DNA from: an uncultured bacterium
Lineage (GTDB): Bacteria; Bacteroidota; Ignavibacteria; Kapaibacteriales; UBA2268
NCBI GenBank assembly: GCA_942492935.1
Contig: OW818654.1
Span: 3,587,918-3,651,917 of the forward strand
Length of the DNA: 64,000 bases
Direction of reading: 5' to 3'
Below, one piece after another: positions 4,312-57,852 of this stretch. The position numbers were made by a program, and so were the translations under genes. Below the pieces are notes generated by a model. That model had not been told where the DNA came from. It worked only from the letters and a program-made list of their open reading frames with translations, and ran no database searches. How positions within the stretch are numbered: the first letter of the stretch is position 1; every line of letters starts with the position of its first letter.

Positions 4312-6906
4312 TTAATTTCTAAAATAAAATCTTGATGACTTAGCAATACGAATATAATGAGAATTTTGAGGCATCTTTACTTCTTCTCTTTTCATATTAT
4401 TTTTTATCTTATTTCGCAATTTAACGGTTTTTATATAATCAGAATTTTCATATCTTAAAATTTTACTTCTTATTTCAAATGCTTTTTCTATGTAAAATTT
4501 TGCTTTCTCATAGGATCCGGTTTGAAAAAGTGTTTCAGCAAAATTATAATAAGATAATGCTAAATCCGGATTATATTTATCTAAAGTTTTTTCCTTTATT
4601 TTAATTGCATCTATATTGTACTTATTAGAAAAATTATATTCTTTCAATTGAGCATAAGCAAAAGCGATGTTTGTATAATTTGCTGCTATTAAAATTTGAT
4701 TTTCTTCCGAAAAAACTAGATTACTATCTAATGCTTTGAAGAAATAGTTTAAAGATTTAGTATAATTACCAATACTTAAATAGGAAATTCCAATTTCATT
4801 ATATATAGCAGCTAAATGTGTTTTTGGTCTGTCCACTGATGTGATCAATATATCTAATTCACCGAAATTATTTGTAATAGTTTCCCAATTATCAGGTAAT
4901 TTTTTATATATTTCAGCAATTTTCAAGTAAACTGAATCCAAATCTGATTTTTGTTTATCCAATACATTTTCTAATATTTTTATTTCTTCTAAATAATTAT
5001 TTATTGCTAAAGATGACGATTCTAAAATAATATATAAGGAAGCAATATCATTATACGTTTTGGCAATTTCAATATCAACATCATCATCATTATCTTCATT
5101 ATCTAACAATTTATTATATATTTCCAATGCTTTTAAATAATACTTCAAAGATTTATTATATTCCTTTAAATTTTTATAAATTAAAGCCAATTTATTAAAT
5201 GAGTGTACCAAAGTAATACTACAATTACCAAATACTTCTTGTACTATATCAATTTTTTTTAAACAATATCCTATAGCATTATCATAATAGCCCATATAAT
5301 ATAAAGAATTTACAATATTATCATAAATTTCGACTAAATCAGGATGTTGTTTATTTGAAATTTTCTTTTTGATTGCCAATATTTTTTTTTCAAATAATAT
5401 TGAATTTTCGTAATCTCCAATTAATCTATATGTTGTTGCCAAACTTTTATAAGAATCAGCTAAATCAGGATGTTTTTTCTTTAAAATTTTCTTTCTAATT
5501 TCTAATAATTTCAAATCAAAAATGATTGAATTTTGGTAATCGCCTAAGAATCTATATGTTGTTGCCAAATTTTTATAAGATTCAACTAAATCAGGATGTT
5601 TTTTCTTTAAAATTTTCTTTCTGATTTCTAATAATTTCAAATCAAAATTGATTGAATTTTGGTGATCGTCTAAGAGTCTATATATTGTTGCCAAACTATT
5701 ATATGATTCGGCTAAATCAGGGTGATATTTACTCAAAATATTCTTTCTGATTTCTAATAATTTCAAATCAAACAAAATTGAATTTTGGTAATCGCCAAAA
5801 AGTCTATAAGTTGTTGCCAGACTTTTATAAGATTCGACTAATACAAGATGTTTTTTATATAAGATTTGGTTTCTGATTTCCAATACTTTTAAATCAAAAT
5901 AAATTGAATTTTGGTAATCCCCTAAACATCTATACGAAACAACTATTTTATTGTAAACTTCAACTAATTTTGGATGACATTTATTCAAAACTTTCTCTTT
6001 TATTTGCATTGCTTTTAAAAGAAACTCAAGAGATTTTCGATAATTATTTAATTGTTCATAAAATGAGGCTATCTTTTCATAATACTCTGCTAATTTAAAA
6101 GGATGTTCAACAAACATTTTCTCCTTAGTATTAAAAAACTTTAACTCATATTCTAAACTTTTCTGATAATTGCTGGATTGAAAAAATATTTCTGCCAAAT
6201 TATTCGATAAATCTGCAATTATACAATTTTCAATATCAAAATTTTTTATAATACTTTCTGCAAAGGCAATTAAAATATTTTTTGACTGATTGTCTAAATT
6301 TGAATAATTTTCAATTTGATTTGTTATATTATTAATTAGAATGCTGCAATTCTTTGTATTCGGATGCAATTTATTTTGAATAATTTTTTGGATTAATGGA
6401 TTGATATCTAACATATTATCTTCGATTCTAAGCCAGCCCCTTTTTATTAAAGAATTCAATGTTTTTTCAAACTCATTTTTAGTTTCAATAGTTATCGAAA
6501 AATATTTATGTAAATCATTCGAGCTAATTTTGATTGAGGGTAATATTGAGAAATAAAGAAGATACTGTTTTTCAATATCAATTAAAGACCTATATTCAAG
6601 CATCTTGCAAATATATTTGAAAATCTTCGTTTCTTTACTCTTAAAAAATATTTTTTCTTCAATATCAAAGGAAGGGTTTTCAGCTTTTTCATTGCATACT
6701 TTAATAGTTAATTCATCTAACTTCATCTGAAATTTTGATTTATCCTTAATCCTTTGAAAATTGATATCATCGAATAGCAATACTATAAGATTCTCATGAT
6801 TATAAGTACTAAACTGATTGATATTTGAATTAATTTCATCAAATAAATTGCAATTATCATTATTTGAAATTAATTTTATTGTTTCACTATTATTATTTGA
6901 TTCCAT
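4312..6906 (-). CDS. Tetratricopeptide (TPR_12-like) repeat protein, 864 aa, with N-terminal non-TPR domain
   Basis: About 14 consecutive ~42-aa repeats of form HPDLxxSYxxLAxxYRxxGDYxNSIxFDLKLLEIRKKIL. The N-terminal 280 aa has an hhhhDD motif (NLIVLLFDDINF) and an LPxxxK…FP-like segment reminiscent of the NB-ARC Walker B and winged helix, but no P-loop. Confidence 0.6.
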   Translation of the reverse strand: MESNNNSETIKLISNNDNCNLFDEINSNINQFSTYNHENLIVLLFDDINFQRIKDKSKFQMKLDELTIKVCNEKAENPSFDIEEKIFFKSKETKIFKYICKMLEYRSLIDIEKQYLLYFSILPSIKISSNDLHKYFSITIETKNEFEKTLNSLIKRGWLRIEDNMLDINPLIQKIIQNKLHPNTKNCSILINNITNQIENYSNLDNQSKNILIAFAESIIKNFDIENCIIADLSNNLAEIFFQSSNYQKSLEYELKFFNTKEKMFVEHPFKLAEYYEKIASFYEQLNNYRKSLEFLLKAMQIKEKVLNKCHPKLVEVYNKIVVSYRCLGDYQNSIYFDLKVLEIRNQILYKKHLVLVESYKSLATTYRLFGDYQNSILFDLKLLEIRKNILSKYHPDLAESYNSLATIYRLLDDHQNSINFDLKLLEIRKKILKKKHPDLVESYKNLATTYRFLGDYQNSIIFDLKLLEIRKKILKKKHPDLADSYKSLATTYRLIGDYENSILFEKKILAIKKKISNKQHPDLVEIYDNIVNSLYYMGYYDNAIGYCLKKIDIVQEVFGNCSITLVHSFNKLALIYKNLKEYNKSLKYYLKALEIYNKLLDNEDNDDDVDIEIAKTYNDIASLYIILESSSLAINNYLEEIKILENVLDKQKSDLDSVYLKIAEIYKKLPDNWETITNNFGELDILITSVDRPKTHLAAIYNEIGISYLSIGNYTKSLNYFFKALDSNLVFSEENQILIAANYTNIAFAYAQLKEYNFSNKYNIDAIKIKEKTLDKYNPDLALSYYNFAETLFQTGSYEKAKFYIEKAFEIRSKILRYENSDYIKTVKLRNKIKNNMKREEVKMPQNSHYIRIAKSSRFYFRN

Positions 6907-7119: not shown

Positions 7120-9177
7120 TTATTTTTCTATTCTAATTCTACCATCAACAGCAATAACAGTATCTTTTTTCCCTAATAGTGGGTTCAAATCAAGCTCTGA
7201 AATTTCAGGAGCAGCATCAAGTAAGGCACTTAACCTAACAATAATATCTGCAAATATTTCTTGATTGACTCCTTCACGTTTTCGGACGCCTTCAATTAGC
7301 TTATAAGATTTCAACGATTTTATCATAGTCAATGCCTCTACTTTACTGATTGGTGCCAATCCAAAAGACACGTCTTTCAGAACCTCTATAAAAATTCCTC
7401 CAAGTCCGCAAAGAATTATATGTCCAAAATTGTCTTCATGTTTTGCACCTACAAATAATTCAGTACCATTCAACATCGGCTGCAAAAGTACACCAATAGC
7501 TCCTTCAATTTCCATCATCTTTTCAAATTCTGCTTCTACAGTAACTGCGTGCCTTAAATTAAGTGCAACTCCTCCAACATCTGTTTTATGAATAGGTCCA
7601 ATCACTTTCATAACCACAGGAAAACCTAATTCTTCAGCAAATTTAACTGCCATTTCTTTAGTATTTGCTAATCGTTCTGGTACTCTTGGTATTCCTGCAG
7701 AATCTAATAGAATTTGTATTTTATCAGGTGAGAGATAACCACTTTCTGACTTATCTATAATTTCTCTGATTTTTACTCTGTCAATTTCTGGAAATTCATA
7801 AGTTTCTGCTGGTTTTGGAGTAGTATAAACTTTTGAAAGTGCTGCTCCTAAAGATACTTCATCTGTAAAATCAATTCTGCCAAGTGAAAGGAAATGCTGA
7901 ACTGCTTTTCCTGCTTGTACTACTGATGGTAAGCATGGATAAATTGGCTTCTTGCACCATTTCATTTTTTCGTGAAGAACATCATAAACGCCGGTTACAT
8001 CAAACATACCGGTAGTTCCAAATATTACTACAGAAGCATCAATATTATGAAATTCTCTATCTACATATTCAAGAATTGTTCCTAATTGGTCAGCACTACC
8101 AGTTGCGAGAAAGTCAATCGGATTAGAAACTGAAGAACCATGATAAAGTTGGGAAAGCAATTCTTCGGCAGCAGCACCTGATATTGGAGGTACATTCAAG
8201 CCACCTTTTGCTAAAGCATCAGTTAGCATAACACCAGAACCACCTGCATGAGTAATAACCGCTATATTCGGACCTTGCAATTCTTTGTGAAGTAGCACCC
8301 CTGCTACATAAACAAGTTCAGCCCTTGAATGACAACGAACAACTCCAGCTTTTTTAAACAATGCATCAACAGCTGCATCCGAACCAGCCAATGCTCCTGT
8401 ATGAGATGATACTGCTCTTGAACCAGCTTCAGTAGTTCCAGCTTTAATTGCTGCAATCCTACAACCTTTATTGATTAAAGAACGACAATGTTTGAGTAAT
8501 TTTTCTGGTTTTATGATTTGTTCAATATAAAATAATTTTACTCTTGCACTTGTGGCTGGGTCAAAATGTTCGTCCCAATATTCAAGCACTTCTTCTACAC
8601 CTATTTGGGCGCTATTTCCAACTGATAATATATTTGAAAATCTCAAACCTCTTGGCACAGCCATTTCCAAAATAAAGCATATTGTAGCACCTGAACCTGA
8701 AACTAAATCACAACCATTTTTTTGAGCCAATTGTGGAACTAAACCAGCAAACACACCTTTATAATTTTCATTGAGAACACCAATACAATTCGGTCCAATT
8801 AAAGAACCATTTACAGATTCTGTAATTTCAACTAATTTTGCCTCTAATTTCTTGCCTTCTGCTCCAAATTCACTAAAACCTGCTGATAATACAATAAATG
8901 CTTTTGTTCCTTTTTCTTTTGCAAGAATTTCCATAGCACCGGGTATTGCTCTTGCAGGAATTGCCAGAATTGCAAGGTCTGTATTTTCAATTTCAGAAAC
9001 GCTCTGATAACATTTCAAACCCTGAACTAAATTTTCTTTCGGATTAACAGCGGTAATTCTACCTCTGAATCCACCGTCAATGATATTTTTAATAATTTTG
9101 CCACCGGGCTTTTCTACATCATTCGAACCACCCACAATAACAATACTTTTCGGATTTAATAATTCTTTAACTAACAT
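7120..9177 (-). CDS. ADP-forming acyl-CoA synthetase (acetate--CoA ligase [ADP-forming], fused alpha/beta; NDP-forming family)
   Basis: N-terminal CoA-binding domain (IVIVGGSN…). Succinyl-CoA-synthetase-like ligase-CoA domain. C-terminal ATP-grasp (…VMKV…GGVAL…). 685 aa, typical of the fused Acd. Confidence 0.8.
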   Translation of the reverse strand: MLVKELLNPKSIVIVGGSNDVEKPGGKIIKNIIDGGFRGRITAVNPKENLVQGLKCYQSVSEIENTDLAILAIPARAIPGAMEILAKEKGTKAFIVLSAGFSEFGAEGKKLEAKLVEITESVNGSLIGPNCIGVLNENYKGVFAGLVPQLAQKNGCDLVSGSGATICFILEMAVPRGLRFSNILSVGNSAQIGVEEVLEYWDEHFDPATSARVKLFYIEQIIKPEKLLKHCRSLINKGCRIAAIKAGTTEAGSRAVSSHTGALAGSDAAVDALFKKAGVVRCHSRAELVYVAGVLLHKELQGPNIAVITHAGGSGVMLTDALAKGGLNVPPISGAAAEELLSQLYHGSSVSNPIDFLATGSADQLGTILEYVDREFHNIDASVVIFGTTGMFDVTGVYDVLHEKMKWCKKPIYPCLPSVVQAGKAVQHFLSLGRIDFTDEVSLGAALSKVYTTPKPAETYEFPEIDRVKIREIIDKSESGYLSPDKIQILLDSAGIPRVPERLANTKEMAVKFAEELGFPVVMKVIGPIHKTDVGGVALNLRHAVTVEAEFEKMMEIEGAIGVLLQPMLNGTELFVGAKHEDNFGHIILCGLGGIFIEVLKDVSFGLAPISKVEALTMIKSLKSYKLIEGVRKREGVNQEIFADIIVRLSALLDAAPEISELDLNPLLGKKDTVIAVDGRIRIEK

Positions 9178-9497
9178 AATAACATTCTATAATTTATTTC
9201 AAAAATTAATTAATTTACACAATCAAATATATTAGCAAAATTACTCAAAACCTATTAAATTACAAAGTATTATAAAGAAAAATAAAACAATATACAGATT
9301 TTAAAGCTGACCATATCTTAAAACAAATTGATAACTATTCGACCGATATAATTTTATATTTGCCAGTTAATTTCAATTAAATATAAAGTACATTTGAAAT
9401 TAATGGAAAATAATGCACCCGTAAACAATTAGTTCCAAAATAGTATGTTTATTTTGATGCTCTAATTATGTTAATAATTCCTGCATAATTTTAAATT

Positions 9498-9671
9498 ATC
9501 GCGTAGTGATTGCATTATGGTAATAAATTTCAAATACAAAATTTCATTTATCACGTAGTGATTATACCATTTAACTTATAATATTACAAAATGTTACTAA
9601 TAATTTAATCACTACGTGATAACTCATCAAATAGCAATTCATCGCTTACCATAATTTAATCACTACGCGAT
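9498..9671. promoter_or_regulatory. Four 13-bp palindromic operator-like sites ATC(A/G)C-N3-GTGAT at 9498-9510, 9550-9562, 9608-9620 and 9659-9671, nested as outer and inner inverted pairs
   Basis: Read directly from the sequence. Sites 2 and 3 are perfect palindromes. Sites 1 and 4 are reverse complements of each other. Centre-to-centre spacing is 51-58 bp. Flanks also form a 28-bp inverted repeat (9490-9518 vs 9648-9676). Confidence 0.5.
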
Positions 9672-9918
9672 AAATTAAAAACATTTAGGAAAATTATTTA
9701 TCATTTTTACCCATAGAGTAAACATAACAGTACCAAACTCTTGTCTAACTTAGTAGTCAAACATCCTATGTTTTGGAATCATCGGATGTTTTAAAATAGT
9801 TAGCTGTAATATACACATGATTTTTTCACTTAGAAACTGAGCAATTTCAAAAAAATAACAATTCTTATAATTGAAAATTTGTTATTTTTGCTTTTTTGAA
9901 ATATAAACGGTAAAAATT

Positions 9919-10341
9919 ATGAAAAAATTAGTTGCTGTATTATTTATTATGAGTGTGATTTGGGGATGCTCTTCAAGTACTTCACCAGAAAGCATAATTG
10001 ATAACAATTGTATAGAATCTCGAATATTCTTTGGATTATCAAGTCCAGCAGGTGAAATAACAGATGAACAATGGCAATCATTTATGACAAATGAAATTGC
10101 TTCAAGATTTCCATCTGGATTCACTATAATAGATGCAATTGGATATTGGAGAGAATGTGATACGTGTCAATTTTATCAAGAAAAATCAAAAATGATGCTA
10201 TTAGTTTATCCTGATAGTTTATTCAAAAAAAATATACCGATAATTGAAGATATGGCTTACAAATATATAGAAAAATTTAATCAGCAAGCCGTACTTCAAT
10301 CATCAACAGAGGTCAATTGCGAATTTTATTTCAAAAAATGA
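9919..10341 (+). CDS. Hypothetical lipoprotein
   Basis: Signal peptide with lipobox (…VIWGC). 140 aa. No confident family assignment. Confidence 0.5.
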   Translation: MKKLVAVLFIMSVIWGCSSSTSPESIIDNNCIESRIFFGLSSPAGEITDEQWQSFMTNEIASRFPSGFTIIDAIGYWRECDTCQFYQEKSKMMLLVYPDSLFKKNIPIIEDMAYKYIEKFNQQAVLQSSTEVNCEFYFKK

Positions 10342-16594: not shown

Positions 16595-16768
16595 AATTCA
16601 CAATATAAACATACAAAAAAAATACAACAAAAAATAATTTTTGTCAAAAAAATTGTATTGCTATGCAATAATTTTATTACAACAAAACCTCCGATAGGTA
16701 AAAAATGGGCATTTGTACATCTGGTTTATAATGAAATTTGGTTGAATTTTTACAAAAATCATATAAAG

Positions 16769-36975: not shown

Positions 36976-38226
36976 TTATTTCAATTCTAATTCATGTATT
37001 TTGCTTAATTCAATCTCTGTTTGTTCGGAAGTAATCATATTTTTCAACAATACTGTATTTCTATTTAATTCTTCTTCAGCTACAATGACGGAGTATTTAG
37101 CATTAAATTTATTAGCTTCTTTAAATTGTGATTTCATAGACCTACGGTTAATATCTGTAATAACTCTTAAATTTTTATTTCTAAACAATTCTGCAATAGA
37201 ATTTGCTTTTGCACTTAAATTTTGATTAGCACATACTACATAAATATCACATTCTGAATCAGATTTTTTGGATATATTTAATGCTTCAAGAATTAATAAA
37301 ATTCTTTCAACACCCATAGCAAATCCTACAGCAGGATTAGCTTTCCCGCCTAATTGTGCAAACAAACCGTCATATCTACCACCACCACCAAATGAATCTT
37401 GAGCGCCCAACGCTGAAGATTGAAATTCAAAAACAGTATGGCAATAATAATCCAAGCCACGAACTAAACGTGGTTGAATTGTAAAATTAACATCTTCTGC
37501 GGAAAGTAATTTTTTGACTGTTTCAAAATGTGTTGAACTTTCTTCATCAAGATAATCAAGAATGACTGGAGCTTTGTTGATAACTTCAATATCCTTTTCG
37601 CTTTTTGAATCAAGAACTCTTAGAGGATTATTTTCCAATCTCTGCTTAGATTCTTCTGATAAGAATTCTTTATTTTGATTTAGATATTCTATCAATGCAG
37701 TTCTGTAATTCTGTCTTGAGTTTTCTGTACCGAGTGTATTTATCAATAAATTATATTCACTAATACCAAGTTCTTTAATAATTTTATTAGCTAAAAGCAG
37801 TATTTCAACATCTGCTTCTGGATTTGGTGAACCAATAGATTCTGCTCCATACTGATGAAATTGGCGTAAACGTCCTTTTTGTGGTCTTTCATAACGGAAA
37901 TAAGGACCTATATAATATAATCTTAAATTTGCTCCATCTCTATCTAATGAATTTTGAATAACTGCTCTCACAAGTGCGGCAGTTTGTTCAGGACGAAGTG
38001 TGATTGATTCTCCACCTTTATCAGTAAAAGTGTACATTTCTTTATTTACAATATCGGTATCATCACCAATGCTACGTGAAAATACTTCAGTTTTTTCAAA
38101 AATAGGGGTTCTTAATTCCTTATAGCCATAAATTTGGGATACATTTCTGAATACATTTTCTACAAAATGCCAATCAGAAATAGTAGCAGGAATAATATCT
38201 TTTGTACCACGAACAGTATTAATCAT
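36976..38226 (-). CDS. hisS: Histidine--tRNA ligase
   Basis: Class II aaRS motifs (…YRYERPQKGRLRQFHQ…, …GGGGRYDGL…). C-terminal anticodon-binding domain. 416 aa. Confidence 0.9.
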   Translation of the reverse strand: MINTVRGTKDIIPATISDWHFVENVFRNVSQIYGYKELRTPIFEKTEVFSRSIGDDTDIVNKEMYTFTDKGGESITLRPEQTAALVRAVIQNSLDRDGANLRLYYIGPYFRYERPQKGRLRQFHQYGAESIGSPNPEADVEILLLANKIIKELGISEYNLLINTLGTENSRQNYRTALIEYLNQNKEFLSEESKQRLENNPLRVLDSKSEKDIEVINKAPVILDYLDEESSTHFETVKKLLSAEDVNFTIQPRLVRGLDYYCHTVFEFQSSALGAQDSFGGGGRYDGLFAQLGGKANPAVGFAMGVERILLILEALNISKKSDSECDIYVVCANQNLSAKANSIAELFRNKNLRVITDINRRSMKSQFKEANKFNAKYSVIVAEEELNRNTVLLKNMITSEQTEIELSKIHELELK

Positions 38227-38435
38227 AATGAATTTCTTATTTAAGTTCTTAAAAACAACTAAAATAATAAAACAAATCTTAAAAATAAAACAATTAAGAT
38301 TTTTTTTGGAAAAATATGATATATAATAACTTTCTACAAGCTCAATTTTTCAAATTTGAAAATGTCAACGGCTGATATTTTTATTTTTCTTATTTTTGTA
38401 TATTGTAAAATGATAAATTATGGAGATTATTTTTT

Positions 38436-39482
38436 ATGAAATTTATATTATACATTTGTGTTGCTACAATAATATTATTAGTATCTTGTTCGGATAATGG
38501 CTCGAATCAAACAAGCGATGATAAAATTAATGTATTATATCTTATGGATAGTACAGGACATTATAGTCAATTTGGTATTGAAGCAATGAACGGAATGAAA
38601 TTGGCTGGAAAAAACTCTGAAAAATTAAATATAATAACAATAGATACTAAATCTGATGCAAATTTTGCAATCATTGAATTTAATAGAATAATTTCTGAAA
38701 AGAAAATAACAGCTGTCATTACATTAACAAGTTGGGTTTCAAATGCAATTTCACCAATCGCAAAACAAAATAATATTTCACATTTTGCTATTGGTAGTGC
38801 TGTTTTTGATAATAAATCCTTAAACAATACAATTAGATTTACAACAGATGTACTTAAAGAATCACAGTATATTCAAACATATCTGAATAAATTTAACAAA
38901 GTTGCAATGATGTATTTTGTGAATGATTATGGAATTGGCTGGAAAAATAGAATGGAGCAAGGATTGGGAAATAAACTCACAAAAATTGTTAGTTATAGTG
39001 ATTTAAATGATGATTTTACAGATGAATTAAATTCGATTAATACCGAAAAACCTGATGTTTTGCTATTAATTAGCACAAAAGAAGCTGCCATTATTGCAAA
39101 ACAAGCTGCTCAACTTGGAATCAAAACACAGTTAGTTGGCGTTAGACCTACATTTTCTGACTATTTAAAAGATGAACCTACAGCTGAAGGATTTATTTTT
39201 TCATATCCAGCAATGGATTTTACAAATAAATTATTTGCTGATTATCAATCAATTTATGGAAAAAAAGCATCTGCTTTTTCAGCTGAAGGTTATGATTTAA
39301 TCAATTCATTAATTGATGCAATTAATTTAAATAAAATTACAAATACCGAAATTTTCGATTTTTATAAGAATAAATCTTATAATGGTGCTTTAGGTAAAAT
39401 TACATTTGATGAATTTGCCCAAGCAGATTATAAGTTTAGCTTAATGAAACTAACAAATAAAAATTATGTTACAATTGAATAA
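38436..39482 (+). CDS. Periplasmic-binding-protein type I lipoprotein (LivK/Peripla_BP_6-like ABC substrate-binding protein)
   Basis: Lipobox LLVSCSD. Overall fold-level resemblance to the Leu/Ile/Val-binding protein family. Confidence 0.5.
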   Translation: MKFILYICVATIILLVSCSDNGSNQTSDDKINVLYLMDSTGHYSQFGIEAMNGMKLAGKNSEKLNIITIDTKSDANFAIIEFNRIISEKKITAVITLTSWVSNAISPIAKQNNISHFAIGSAVFDNKSLNNTIRFTTDVLKESQYIQTYLNKFNKVAMMYFVNDYGIGWKNRMEQGLGNKLTKIVSYSDLNDDFTDELNSINTEKPDVLLLISTKEAAIIAKQAAQLGIKTQLVGVRPTFSDYLKDEPTAEGFIFSYPAMDFTNKLFADYQSIYGKKASAFSAEGYDLINSLIDAINLNKITNTEIFDFYKNKSYNGALGKITFDEFAQADYKFSLMKLTNKNYVTIE

Positions 39483-57156: not shown

Positions 57157-57852
57157 GTATTTTAGAAATAACTTAAATTTTAAATTAATTATTTTCATTT
57201 TTTTGAAGGAAAAGAATGTCTTTGTAACTGGTTTATAAAAATCAGTTGTGTGGATATTCTTTTTTTTATGCTGTATTATTCTAAAAGCATTTGCACATTG
57301 AATAAGTATTTTACAAAATTGCTATAAAGAATAAAATAATCATCTTCCCAAATTACCCAATATTACATTTTCAGAATTAATGTTTTAAGAATTTATGAGT
57401 TGTTATTTTTTTGTAACGACTAAGCCCTTTTATAATTTTAAATATGTTATGTTTTTTGAATGCGAATAAAGTACAATTGGAACAAGTTGAAAATAATTAT
57501 AAAAATGAAATTCCTTGAAAATCCCGTTAGGGATTACCTGTTTGTAATAAAAATACACAACTTGAGATTTCCCCTCTAAAAAGAGGGGAGCAAGGGGTGT
57601 GTATTGATGGATGCGGGTTTTGGGCGAAATTGCAACCATAATTCAACACCTACGGCGTTGCAGTTGGTCATGGGAGATTCATCAGTTACAAACATTAATT
57701 CCCTATGGGAATTTCAAGGAATTTTTTACAAAAAACAACAGAAATTCGATATTATTCAAATGTGGCTAAGTTGTTATTTTTTTAAAATGTTGAAAAATAA
57801 TTAAAATTTTTTTTTATTTATAACAAATCTTTCCGTAAATTGCATTTGTGAA

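Follow-up and report, generated by a model that had tools for sequence, protein, structure and literature searches.

The 64,000-nucleotide stretch of DNA analyzed here (the window; contig OW818654.1, from an uncultured bacterium of the Kapaibacteriales) contains an array of four short palindromes. This array is very probably a transposase-less cluster resembling repetitive extragenic palindromic (REP) sequences, formed by a hairpin-repeat family that is cognate to small IS200-like Y1 HUH transposases of the TnpA-Y1 subclass 1.2. The repeat unit consists of a hairpin with a 5-bp stem and a GTA loop (ATCAC-GTA-GTGAT in this array), a tail that is about 13 nt long and terminates with GTA(A/G), and a spacer, which together give a period of about 51 nt. 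In the repeat family described below, the stems covary around an invariant loop, the units follow an orientation rule and a regular spacing, and copies are dispersed to non-orthologous intergenic sites. By analogy, the array of the window may be likened in function to a bacterial interspersed mosaic element (BIME) or to a double REPIN (REP doublet forming a hairpin).

Four directional units nest as a palindrome

The array lies in an intergenic spacer of 741 bp (9178-9918), bounded by two divergent genes, one of the ADP-forming acetyl-CoA synthetase type (acd; 7120-9177, minus strand) and one for a DUF3574 lipoprotein (9919-10341, plus strand). In the original prediction, made from the sequence alone, four ATCAC-N3-GTGAT dyads had been described at 9498, 9550, 9608, and 9659. 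All four are present as 13-bp dyads, two of them perfect (ATCACGTAGTGAT and its complement) and two with a single G/A change (ATCGCGTAGTGAT), and the start-to-start distances are 52, 58, and 51 bp. The motif occurs above chance: ATCACNNNGTGAT, with at most one mismatch, has seven matches in the window versus 1.77 expected, a number reached in none of 100 shuffles, and four of the matches are located within 174 bp. The conserved core of the four sites is a 16-mer, TTATCRCGTAGTGATT, which is longer than the dyad and directional; exact copies start at 9496 and 9548 on the plus strand and at 9607 and 9658 on the minus strand, and no further copy with up to two mismatches was found in the rest of the window. 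Tandem Repeats Finder gave no relevant result, since beyond the core the units have diverged too far.

The predicted nested inverted arrangement was likewise recovered by a repeat search, with outer arms of 46 nt (9478-9523 and 9646-9691, 85% complementary) and inner arms of 24 nt (9548-9571 and 9599-9622, 88% complementary), so that the four copies nest as an imperfect 214-nt palindrome of the arrangement A> B> <B' <A'. Of the two variants, G belongs to the outer pair of copies and A to the inner pair. As this difference is mirrored between the arms, long-range complementarity is kept, whereas the local dyad is broken at two sites. Inverted repeats that form one hairpin and whose differences are compensated (here, arms of 85 to 88% complementarity and the mirrored G/A change) are the mark of a REPIN. 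Either strand of the array region folds as one long branched hairpin, with z scores against shuffles of -10.3 (plus strand) and -9.1 (minus strand) for RNA; the single-stranded DNA fold of 9440-9735 has an energy of -46.3 kcal/mol (z = -9.0 versus shuffles). The units and the composite element are listed below; scores refer to the covariance model R1, which was built solely from units of other clades and included no ATCAC unit.

9496..9525, plus strand: REP-like unit A, outer left; TTATCGCGTAGTGATT with tail GCATTATGGTAATA; hairpin ATCGC-GTA-GTGAT with one G.T pair; R1 12.3 bits, E 0.33
9548..9577, plus strand: REP-like unit B, inner left; TTATCACGTAGTGATT, GTA loop on a perfect 5-bp stem, degenerate tail ATACCATTTAAC; R1 10.6 bits; DNA fold -2.0 kcal/mol
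9593..9622, minus strand: REP-like unit B', inner right, inverted; TTATCACGTAGTGATT with AAATTATTAGTAAC; R1 15.0 bits, E 0.044
9644..9673, minus strand: REP-like unit A', outer right, inverted; TTATCGCGTAGTGATT with AAATTATGGTAAGC; R1 10.1 bits
9478..9691, no strand: composite palindromic element A> B> <B' <A'; terminal arms TTCCTGCAT...ATTTAGGAA; homologous three-copy element in locus L098
9444..9727, no strand: probable full extent of the element; outer arms TATGTTTATT and AGTAAACATA pair in the single-stranded DNA fold; boundaries inferred

The same unit in related genomes

A scan for the 16-mer in one genome per species yielded, among the matches listed and amid single chance matches, multicopy loci in metagenome-assembled genomes (MAGs) of Ignavibacteria, Melioribacteraceae, and Kapaibacteria. 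The 28- to 30-nt unit, i.e., the hairpin ATCAC-GTA-GTGAT followed by the tail ATTATGGTAA, recurs in intergenic arrays of Ignavibacteria and Kapaibacteria MAGs with a period of about 51 nt; the identical 16-mer is found in arrays of several of these MAGs with a period of 51 to 53 nt, and when up to two mismatches are allowed, the loci among the matches listed have arrays with a period of 50 to 53 nt. Written out, the MAG unit is TTATCACGTAGTGATT followed by (A/T)(A/T)ATTATGGTA(A/G) and a variable spacer. A frequent array partner is TTATCCCGTAGGGATT, in which both half-sites are altered together. R1 recovers the MAG arrays with E values down to 1e-6. The repeats are extragenic, as none of the arrays in the window and in nine MAG loci overlaps an open reading frame (ORF) of at least 100 aa. 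The adjoining genes are unrelated, and the sites include convergent and tandem gene pairs. The region 9440-9830 gave no blastn match against phages and plasmids, and the 16-mer has 19 single matches in viral contigs, in line with chance.

A three-copy version of the window element is present in L098, from a close relative; along 183 nt, which take in the spacers and terminal arms, the two share 82.5% identity. The genes beside it are different ones, and the site is non-orthologous. The original prediction had named a miniature inverted-repeat element as an alternative, and this copy puts that suggestion close to the mark. L098 and L223 derive from the same assembly, and the Acd protein of L223 falls into the 90%-identity cluster of the window Acd. 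L098 also has the left outer arm of the window element, and L223 has a weaker match to it. The orthologous acd contig in L223 (positions 1-358; JANJUO010000070.1, RXS1 MAG) ends with ...CTTTAAATT, at precisely the point at which the window sequence enters its first unit, which is consistent with an assembly break at a multicopy repeat.

Arrays bracket genes for small Y1 transposases

In L073/L143, an ORF for a 157-aa Y1 protein is preceded by seven copies of the core motif in gene orientation and followed by three inverted copies; six of the upstream copies are no more than 300 nt from the start codon. The L073 ORF matches Pfam Y1_Tnp (PF01797, E 1.9e-25) and scores above the cut-off of the NCBIfam IS200 model (70.5 bits; cut-off 55). 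The closest solved structures by sequence are the TnpA proteins of ISDra2 (2xm3, E 4e-8) and IS608 (E 6e-3). A homolog with 82% identity, P0008, is present on six contigs (L133-L138), with three to four units upstream and three to four inverted units downstream at a period of 51 nt, the first downstream unit overlapping the stop codon. The array-flanked Y1 proteins have 155 to 157 aa in two lineages. L133-L138 represent the same transposase locus from different samples, and the number and exactness of their 51-nt units vary (e.g., four versus three upstream), indicating that the arrays expand and contract. Unit A' of the window (9644..9673) is near-identical to the units around the Y1 gene in L133. 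A cognate Y1 gene bracketed by inverted repeat copies defines a REPtron, and this arrangement is seen in L073/L143, in L133-L138, and, as an orientation rule, over the 80 loci described next.

Stem covariation, orientation, and spacing in 80 loci

A metagenome scan with the L073 protein provided 80 loci (53 to 100% identity), of which flanks of 350 to 400 nt were examined. Perfect hairpins with a 5-bp stem and a GTA loop occur upstream 70 times in gene orientation versus 12 times in the opposite one, and downstream 50 are inverted versus 14. In these flanks, GTA is by far the most frequent of the 64 possible 3-nt loops, and 23 distinct stems are found, always complementary, in the form NNNNC-GTA-GNNNN. 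When no preselection on pairing was applied, all four outer pairs were complementary in 122 of 178 CGTAG sites in the proper orientation. In alignment A3, comprising 51 units preselected for at least three of the four pairs, 99% of the cells are paired and double-change cells number 70, versus 19.5 in shuffles. The consensus of the flank unit is a-NNNNC-GTA-GNNNN-g(a/g)cAT.Tt.(g/a)TAG(a/c)a. As the loop reads GTA (versus TAC on the other strand) and the conserved tail lies on one side only, the unit is directional. The spacing of successive hairpins peaks sharply at 49 to 52 nt (25 loci with unrelated sequences), and the proximal hairpin ends either 8 to 16 or 58 to 67 nt before the ATG.

Relation to known systems

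The L073 ORF has the features of TnpA-Y1 subclass 1.2, i.e., SDHVH, EWQ, and YIENQEKHH in a protein of 157 aa; among 120 homologs, WQ is present in 120 and Y---Q--HH in 117, and the HuH motif reads [ND]H[IV]H. Subclass 1.2 is close to IS200, is devoid of insertion sequence (IS) features, and has been tabulated as REP-less (Quentin et al. 2018, PMC6006769). The proteins described here agree with it in the motifs [ND]H[IV]H, WQ, and Y---Q--HH, in their size (about 150 aa, including a short extension at the C terminus), in their low copy number, and in their occurrence in lineages of the Bacteroidetes/Chlorobi group. The subclass is listed with neither REPs nor IS200-type terminal structures (PMC6006769), whereas the genes described here are flanked by inverted mini-hairpin arrays. 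The REP search rules of that study required a stem of 7 to 20 bp and GTAG or GTGG located 0 to 2 nt 5' of its foot, and the manual table has no entry for subclass 1.2 (PMC6006769); mini-hairpins with 5-bp stems are therefore undetectable by these rules. In the literature consulted, no description of REPs in Ignavibacteria was found.

The system appears to work like REPs and REP-associated tyrosine transposases (RAYTs), and it lies outside the classical REP and class 2 RAYT families. As in the REP/BIME arrays and REPtrons of Proteobacteria (PMC2817692, PMC3333891), short extragenic hairpin repeats occur singly, as doublets, and clustered, and inverted copies bracket a single-copy Y1 HUH gene. 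Repeat and enzyme covary between lineages, GTAG is conserved, and there are clusters devoid of a transposase gene. A single copy in a fixed chromosomal context, as expected of a RAYT, is found for P0008, P0086, and P0070, each of which has a single neighborhood across 17 to 24 contigs; this fits a domesticated single-copy gene rather than an active IS. The differences concern the stem, which has 5 bp here versus 7 to 20 bp in REPs; the position of GTAG, which spans the loop and the 3' stem, with a second (G)TAG 9 to 11 nt 3' of the hairpin, whereas in REPs it stands at the 5' foot; the arrays, which are head to tail with a fixed period of about 50 nt and not of alternating orientations as in BIMEs; the enzyme, which belongs to another subclass and is devoid of the Y---NP motif; and the abundance, which appears to be much lower than that of REPs and BIMEs. 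Classical REPs are usually dispersed in more than 100 copies per genome; R1 marks two clusters with seven units in the 64 kb of the window, and there are several clusters per MAG fragment.

With REPINs, the window element shares the single long hairpin formed by inverted copies, the compensated arm differences, and a non-autonomous, intergenic nature. It differs in having two direct units that face two inverted ones (a double REPIN of about 214 nt), and the usual dispersed form in sister MAGs is a direct doublet and not an inverted one. Small subterminal hairpins, followed about 10 nt to the 3' side by a short conserved sequence, are likewise a feature of IS200/IS605 elements (IS608, ISDra2); we take the short sequence at this distance in our unit to recall the right end of IS608. 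Of the traits of such elements, the Y1_Tnp transposase is present, and one same-strand hairpin per end and several near-identical IS copies are not. Whereas both IS ends lie on one strand, the flanking hairpins are inverted and multiplied in phased arrays here; in addition, there is no tnpB, each lineage has the gene in one fixed context, and dispersed copies of the repeat lack the gene.

Proposed mechanism

By analogy with TnpA of IS608 and ISDra2 and with TnpA-REP of E. coli (PMC3333891, PMC2817692), we infer that a Y1 dimer would recognize the hairpins on single-stranded DNA and cut near (G)TAG. The enzyme could then copy or move units in trans and amplify them head to tail. Insertion of new units, each about 50 nt long, beside the terminal (G)TAG of units already in place might account for the constant period; this step is our own suggestion. 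The element of the window, with two direct units facing two inverted ones, may have arisen from a unit of gene plus arrays, either as its transposed deletion derivative or as the scar that it left. The inner spacer, ...ATG|TTAC..., could plausibly be the scar of a deleted Y1 ORF; since TTAC... is simply the tail of the inverted unit, we keep this idea as speculation only.

Possible extent and meaning of the family

Long-lived intragenomic replicators with vertical inheritance are best exemplified by REP/RAYT systems, which are known almost only from Proteobacteria and with one repeat architecture. The locus described here leads to a second one, characterized by a mini-hairpin, a loop-embedded GTAG, and phased 50-nt arrays, which belongs to a Y1 subclass recorded as repeat-less. 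It is conceivable, although we hold this broader proposal with clearly less confidence than the assignment of the window array, that subclass 1.2 is the hub of a widespread, so far undescribed REP-like class, with 5-bp-stem GTA-loop mini-hairpins, a (G)TAG tail, head-to-tail arrays phased at about 50 nt and inverted with respect to each other on the two sides of the gene, and, dispersed in Ignavibacteriota, Bacteroidota, and many bacteria of soils and sediments, doublets and palindromic quadruplets that lack the gene. If the second architecture holds, REP-type systems would extend to the FCB (Fibrobacteres-Chlorobi-Bacteroidetes) group and many uncultured lineages, spacing and tail motif would offer a concrete substrate for biochemistry on subclass 1.2, and motif-based regulon prediction in these genomes would take such repeats for operators.

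Points against the assignment and alternative explanations

Several observations weigh against the assignment to a REP-like family with a cognate Y1 enzyme. The window contains no Y1_Tnp gene in its 64 kb and only two clusters of units, and none of the 120 closest Y1 homolog clusters traces to the source contig. The source genome may thus lack a close cognate enzyme, and the window copies may be orphans; a precedent is given by E. coli strains with a precisely deleted tnpA-REP, which retain the flanking BIMEs (Ton-Hoang 2012, PMC3333891). The L073 ORF remains far below the cut-off of the NCBIfam RAYT model REP_Tyr_transpos (24.5 bits; cut-off 80), and in place of the Y---NP motif (NP[LV][RK]xG in class 2) that defines RAYTs (Nunvar 2010, PMC2817692) it has YIENQEKHH. 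The unit itself departs from classical REPs in its 5-bp stem and in the place of GTAG, which Quentin et al. require at the 5' foot and which here falls within the loop and 3' stem. Counting perfect stems only, an upstream hairpin is present in 41 and a downstream hairpin in 36 of the 80 loci, and the flanks of two homologs of about 65% identity (L139 and L141) hold nothing or little, namely one CCGTTAGGG pair in L141. As DNA, single 13-nt hairpins have little stability (-2 kcal/mol), and those of the G variant form no fold by themselves. The 9-nt direct repeat at L098, described below, would be better suited to a miniature inverted-repeat transposable element (MITE) of the DDE type.

The best surviving alternative, which we nevertheless regard as improbable, is a classical cut-and-paste MITE, i.e., a palindromic element of 250 to 280 bp with terminal inverted repeats that was moved by a DDE transposase with target-site duplication and carries the hairpin units as cargo or relics. 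It would account for the L098 element (700-970), which has outer inverted ends (ACTGG)TATGTTTATT and the same 9-nt sequence GTGTAGGAC on either side, for the matching outer arms in the window (TATGTTTATT and TAAACATA), and for the conservation of the composite, spacers included, between two loci. L098 is, however, the only example; the window copy has neither flanking direct repeats nor a clear target-site duplication. Furthermore, GTGTAGGAC, which includes GTAG, makes up one half of a local palindrome (GTCCTACA...TGTAGGAC) and may belong to this palindrome rather than be a target-site duplication. A DDE-type MITE also leaves the direct doublets, the six-copy tandem arrays, and the transposase-flanking arrays unexplained.

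The original prediction had favored a multi-operator array with possible DNA looping, in which a dimeric transcription factor binds the four dyads about five helical turns apart cooperatively and regulates the divergent acd and DUF3574 promoters. The 13-bp dyads, the divergent promoter region, the 51- to 52-bp spacing, and a promoter-like site between the inner pair suit such an array, but we consider it very unlikely. An operator array would have symmetric duplex half-sites shared by a regulon, whereas the motif is directional with a one-sided conserved tail, and two of the four sites break the dyad yet keep the long-range complementarity. Identical units stand beside unrelated genes, between convergent or tandem genes, and in up to seven copies around a transposase gene, with Y1 genes bracketed by arrays. 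Across the family, the half-sites covary (23 stems) while the loop is invariant, which is the signature of a folded strand and not of a protein reading duplex half-sites. The window array is repeat DNA and does not count as a sign that acd is regulated, and any effect on expression of acd or the DUF3574 gene would putatively be secondary.

Equally doubtful is a structured noncoding RNA, attenuator, or terminator, in which the long hairpin acts as a small RNA or stabilizes an mRNA. The RNA fold of either strand is very stable (z of about -10 and -9), and classical REPs are known to affect mRNA stability (PMC3733652). Both strands fold equally well, however, as those of any DNA palindrome would, the array is upstream of both flanking genes, and no terminator-like site was found. 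A scan of the whole window at Rfam gathering thresholds and a permissive scan of 9150-9950 yielded a tRNA elsewhere and, for the array, no family above threshold and only chance matches to miRNA precursors (E 0.15 to 0.7); the earlier suggestion of a small RNA locus thus found no support. Also rejected were small ORFs in the array region (mere mechanical ORFs of 22 to 27 aa), a CRISPR-like array (within an array the "spacers" hardly differ or come in two forms by turns, and the arrays on the two sides of a transposase gene are inverted), and a replication origin with DnaA boxes (the motif is unlike TTATNCACA, and the turn of the GC skew at about 38 kb follows gene orientation). This turn of the cumulative GC skew, from falling to rising, lies at about 38200-38450 in a divergent intergenic region of 209 bp and tracks the switch in gene orientation.

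Second cluster and other hairpins

Applied to the window, R1 ranked the four array sites 4th, 6th, 8th, and 9th. The top three matches form a second intergenic cluster (57519-57713):

57519..57549, plus strand: second cluster, unit 1; ATCCC-GTTA-GGGAT with TACCTGTTTGTAATA; best R1 match in the window, 22.5 bits, E 2e-4
57631..57660, minus strand: second cluster, unit 2; ACGCC-GTA-GGTGT with TGAATTATGGTTGC; R1 21.0 bits, E 5e-4
57684..57713, minus strand: second cluster, unit 3; TTCCC-ATA-GGGAA with TTAATGTTTGTAAC; R1 19.0 bits, E 2e-3; intergenic

The intergenic spacer 16595-16768 contains a weak R1 match at 16642-16671 (13.4 bits, E 0.15; ATTGC-ATA-GCAAT), perhaps a degenerate unit or a mere terminator-like hairpin.

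The 16-mer was also encountered in the alphaproteobacterium Rhodovibrionaceae bacterium A322 (57 to 60% GC), in which a palindromic repeat about 100 nt long occurs at least 19 times (L020, L022-L024, L032, L036, L041, L047, L054, L063, L069, L070, L093, L099, L108, L111, L122, and L127). The identical 16-mer TTATCACGTAGTGATT forms the apex of this repeat, inside a stem of about 18 bp, and no Y1 gene was present near the repeats in the sequence blocks examined; the shared 16-mer may reflect homology or coincidence.

The DUF3574 lipoprotein encoded downstream of the array (9919-10341) matches Pfam PF12098 (1.1e-24), and yet a word-indexed search of 5.8 billion proteins revealed no relative besides the protein itself; an exact look-up of the gene found no record.

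Two further types of palindrome occur near the units. The first, of about 35 nt (CCCCTCTAA(A/C)AAGAGGG(G/A)GC..GGGGTGTGT), lies beside hairpin units in three different genomes, and in L097 two copies bracket an ATCAC/ATCCC doublet. The second is the strong hairpin downstream of the array, which had been placed at 9748-9795; it exists, but its position is 9759-9791.

57571-57600 of the window; 5280-5320 and 5497-5535 of L073; 3219-3255 and 3537-3575 of L097: companion palindrome of about 35 nt
9759..9791, no strand: separate downstream hairpin, AAACATCCTATGTTT and AATCATCGGATGTTT; DNA fold -6.9 kcal/mol, z = -3.75

This downstream hairpin (AAACATCC..GGATGTTT) has a relative in L080 in the form of a perfect palindrome, AGACATCCAATGTTTG..CAAACATTGGATGTCT (6831-6865 and 7854-7884). 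The L080 palindrome lies 35 to 40 nt upstream of two of three repeat doublets. The third doublet resembles them in other respects but lacks it, as would be expected of a small palindrome that can insert on its own.

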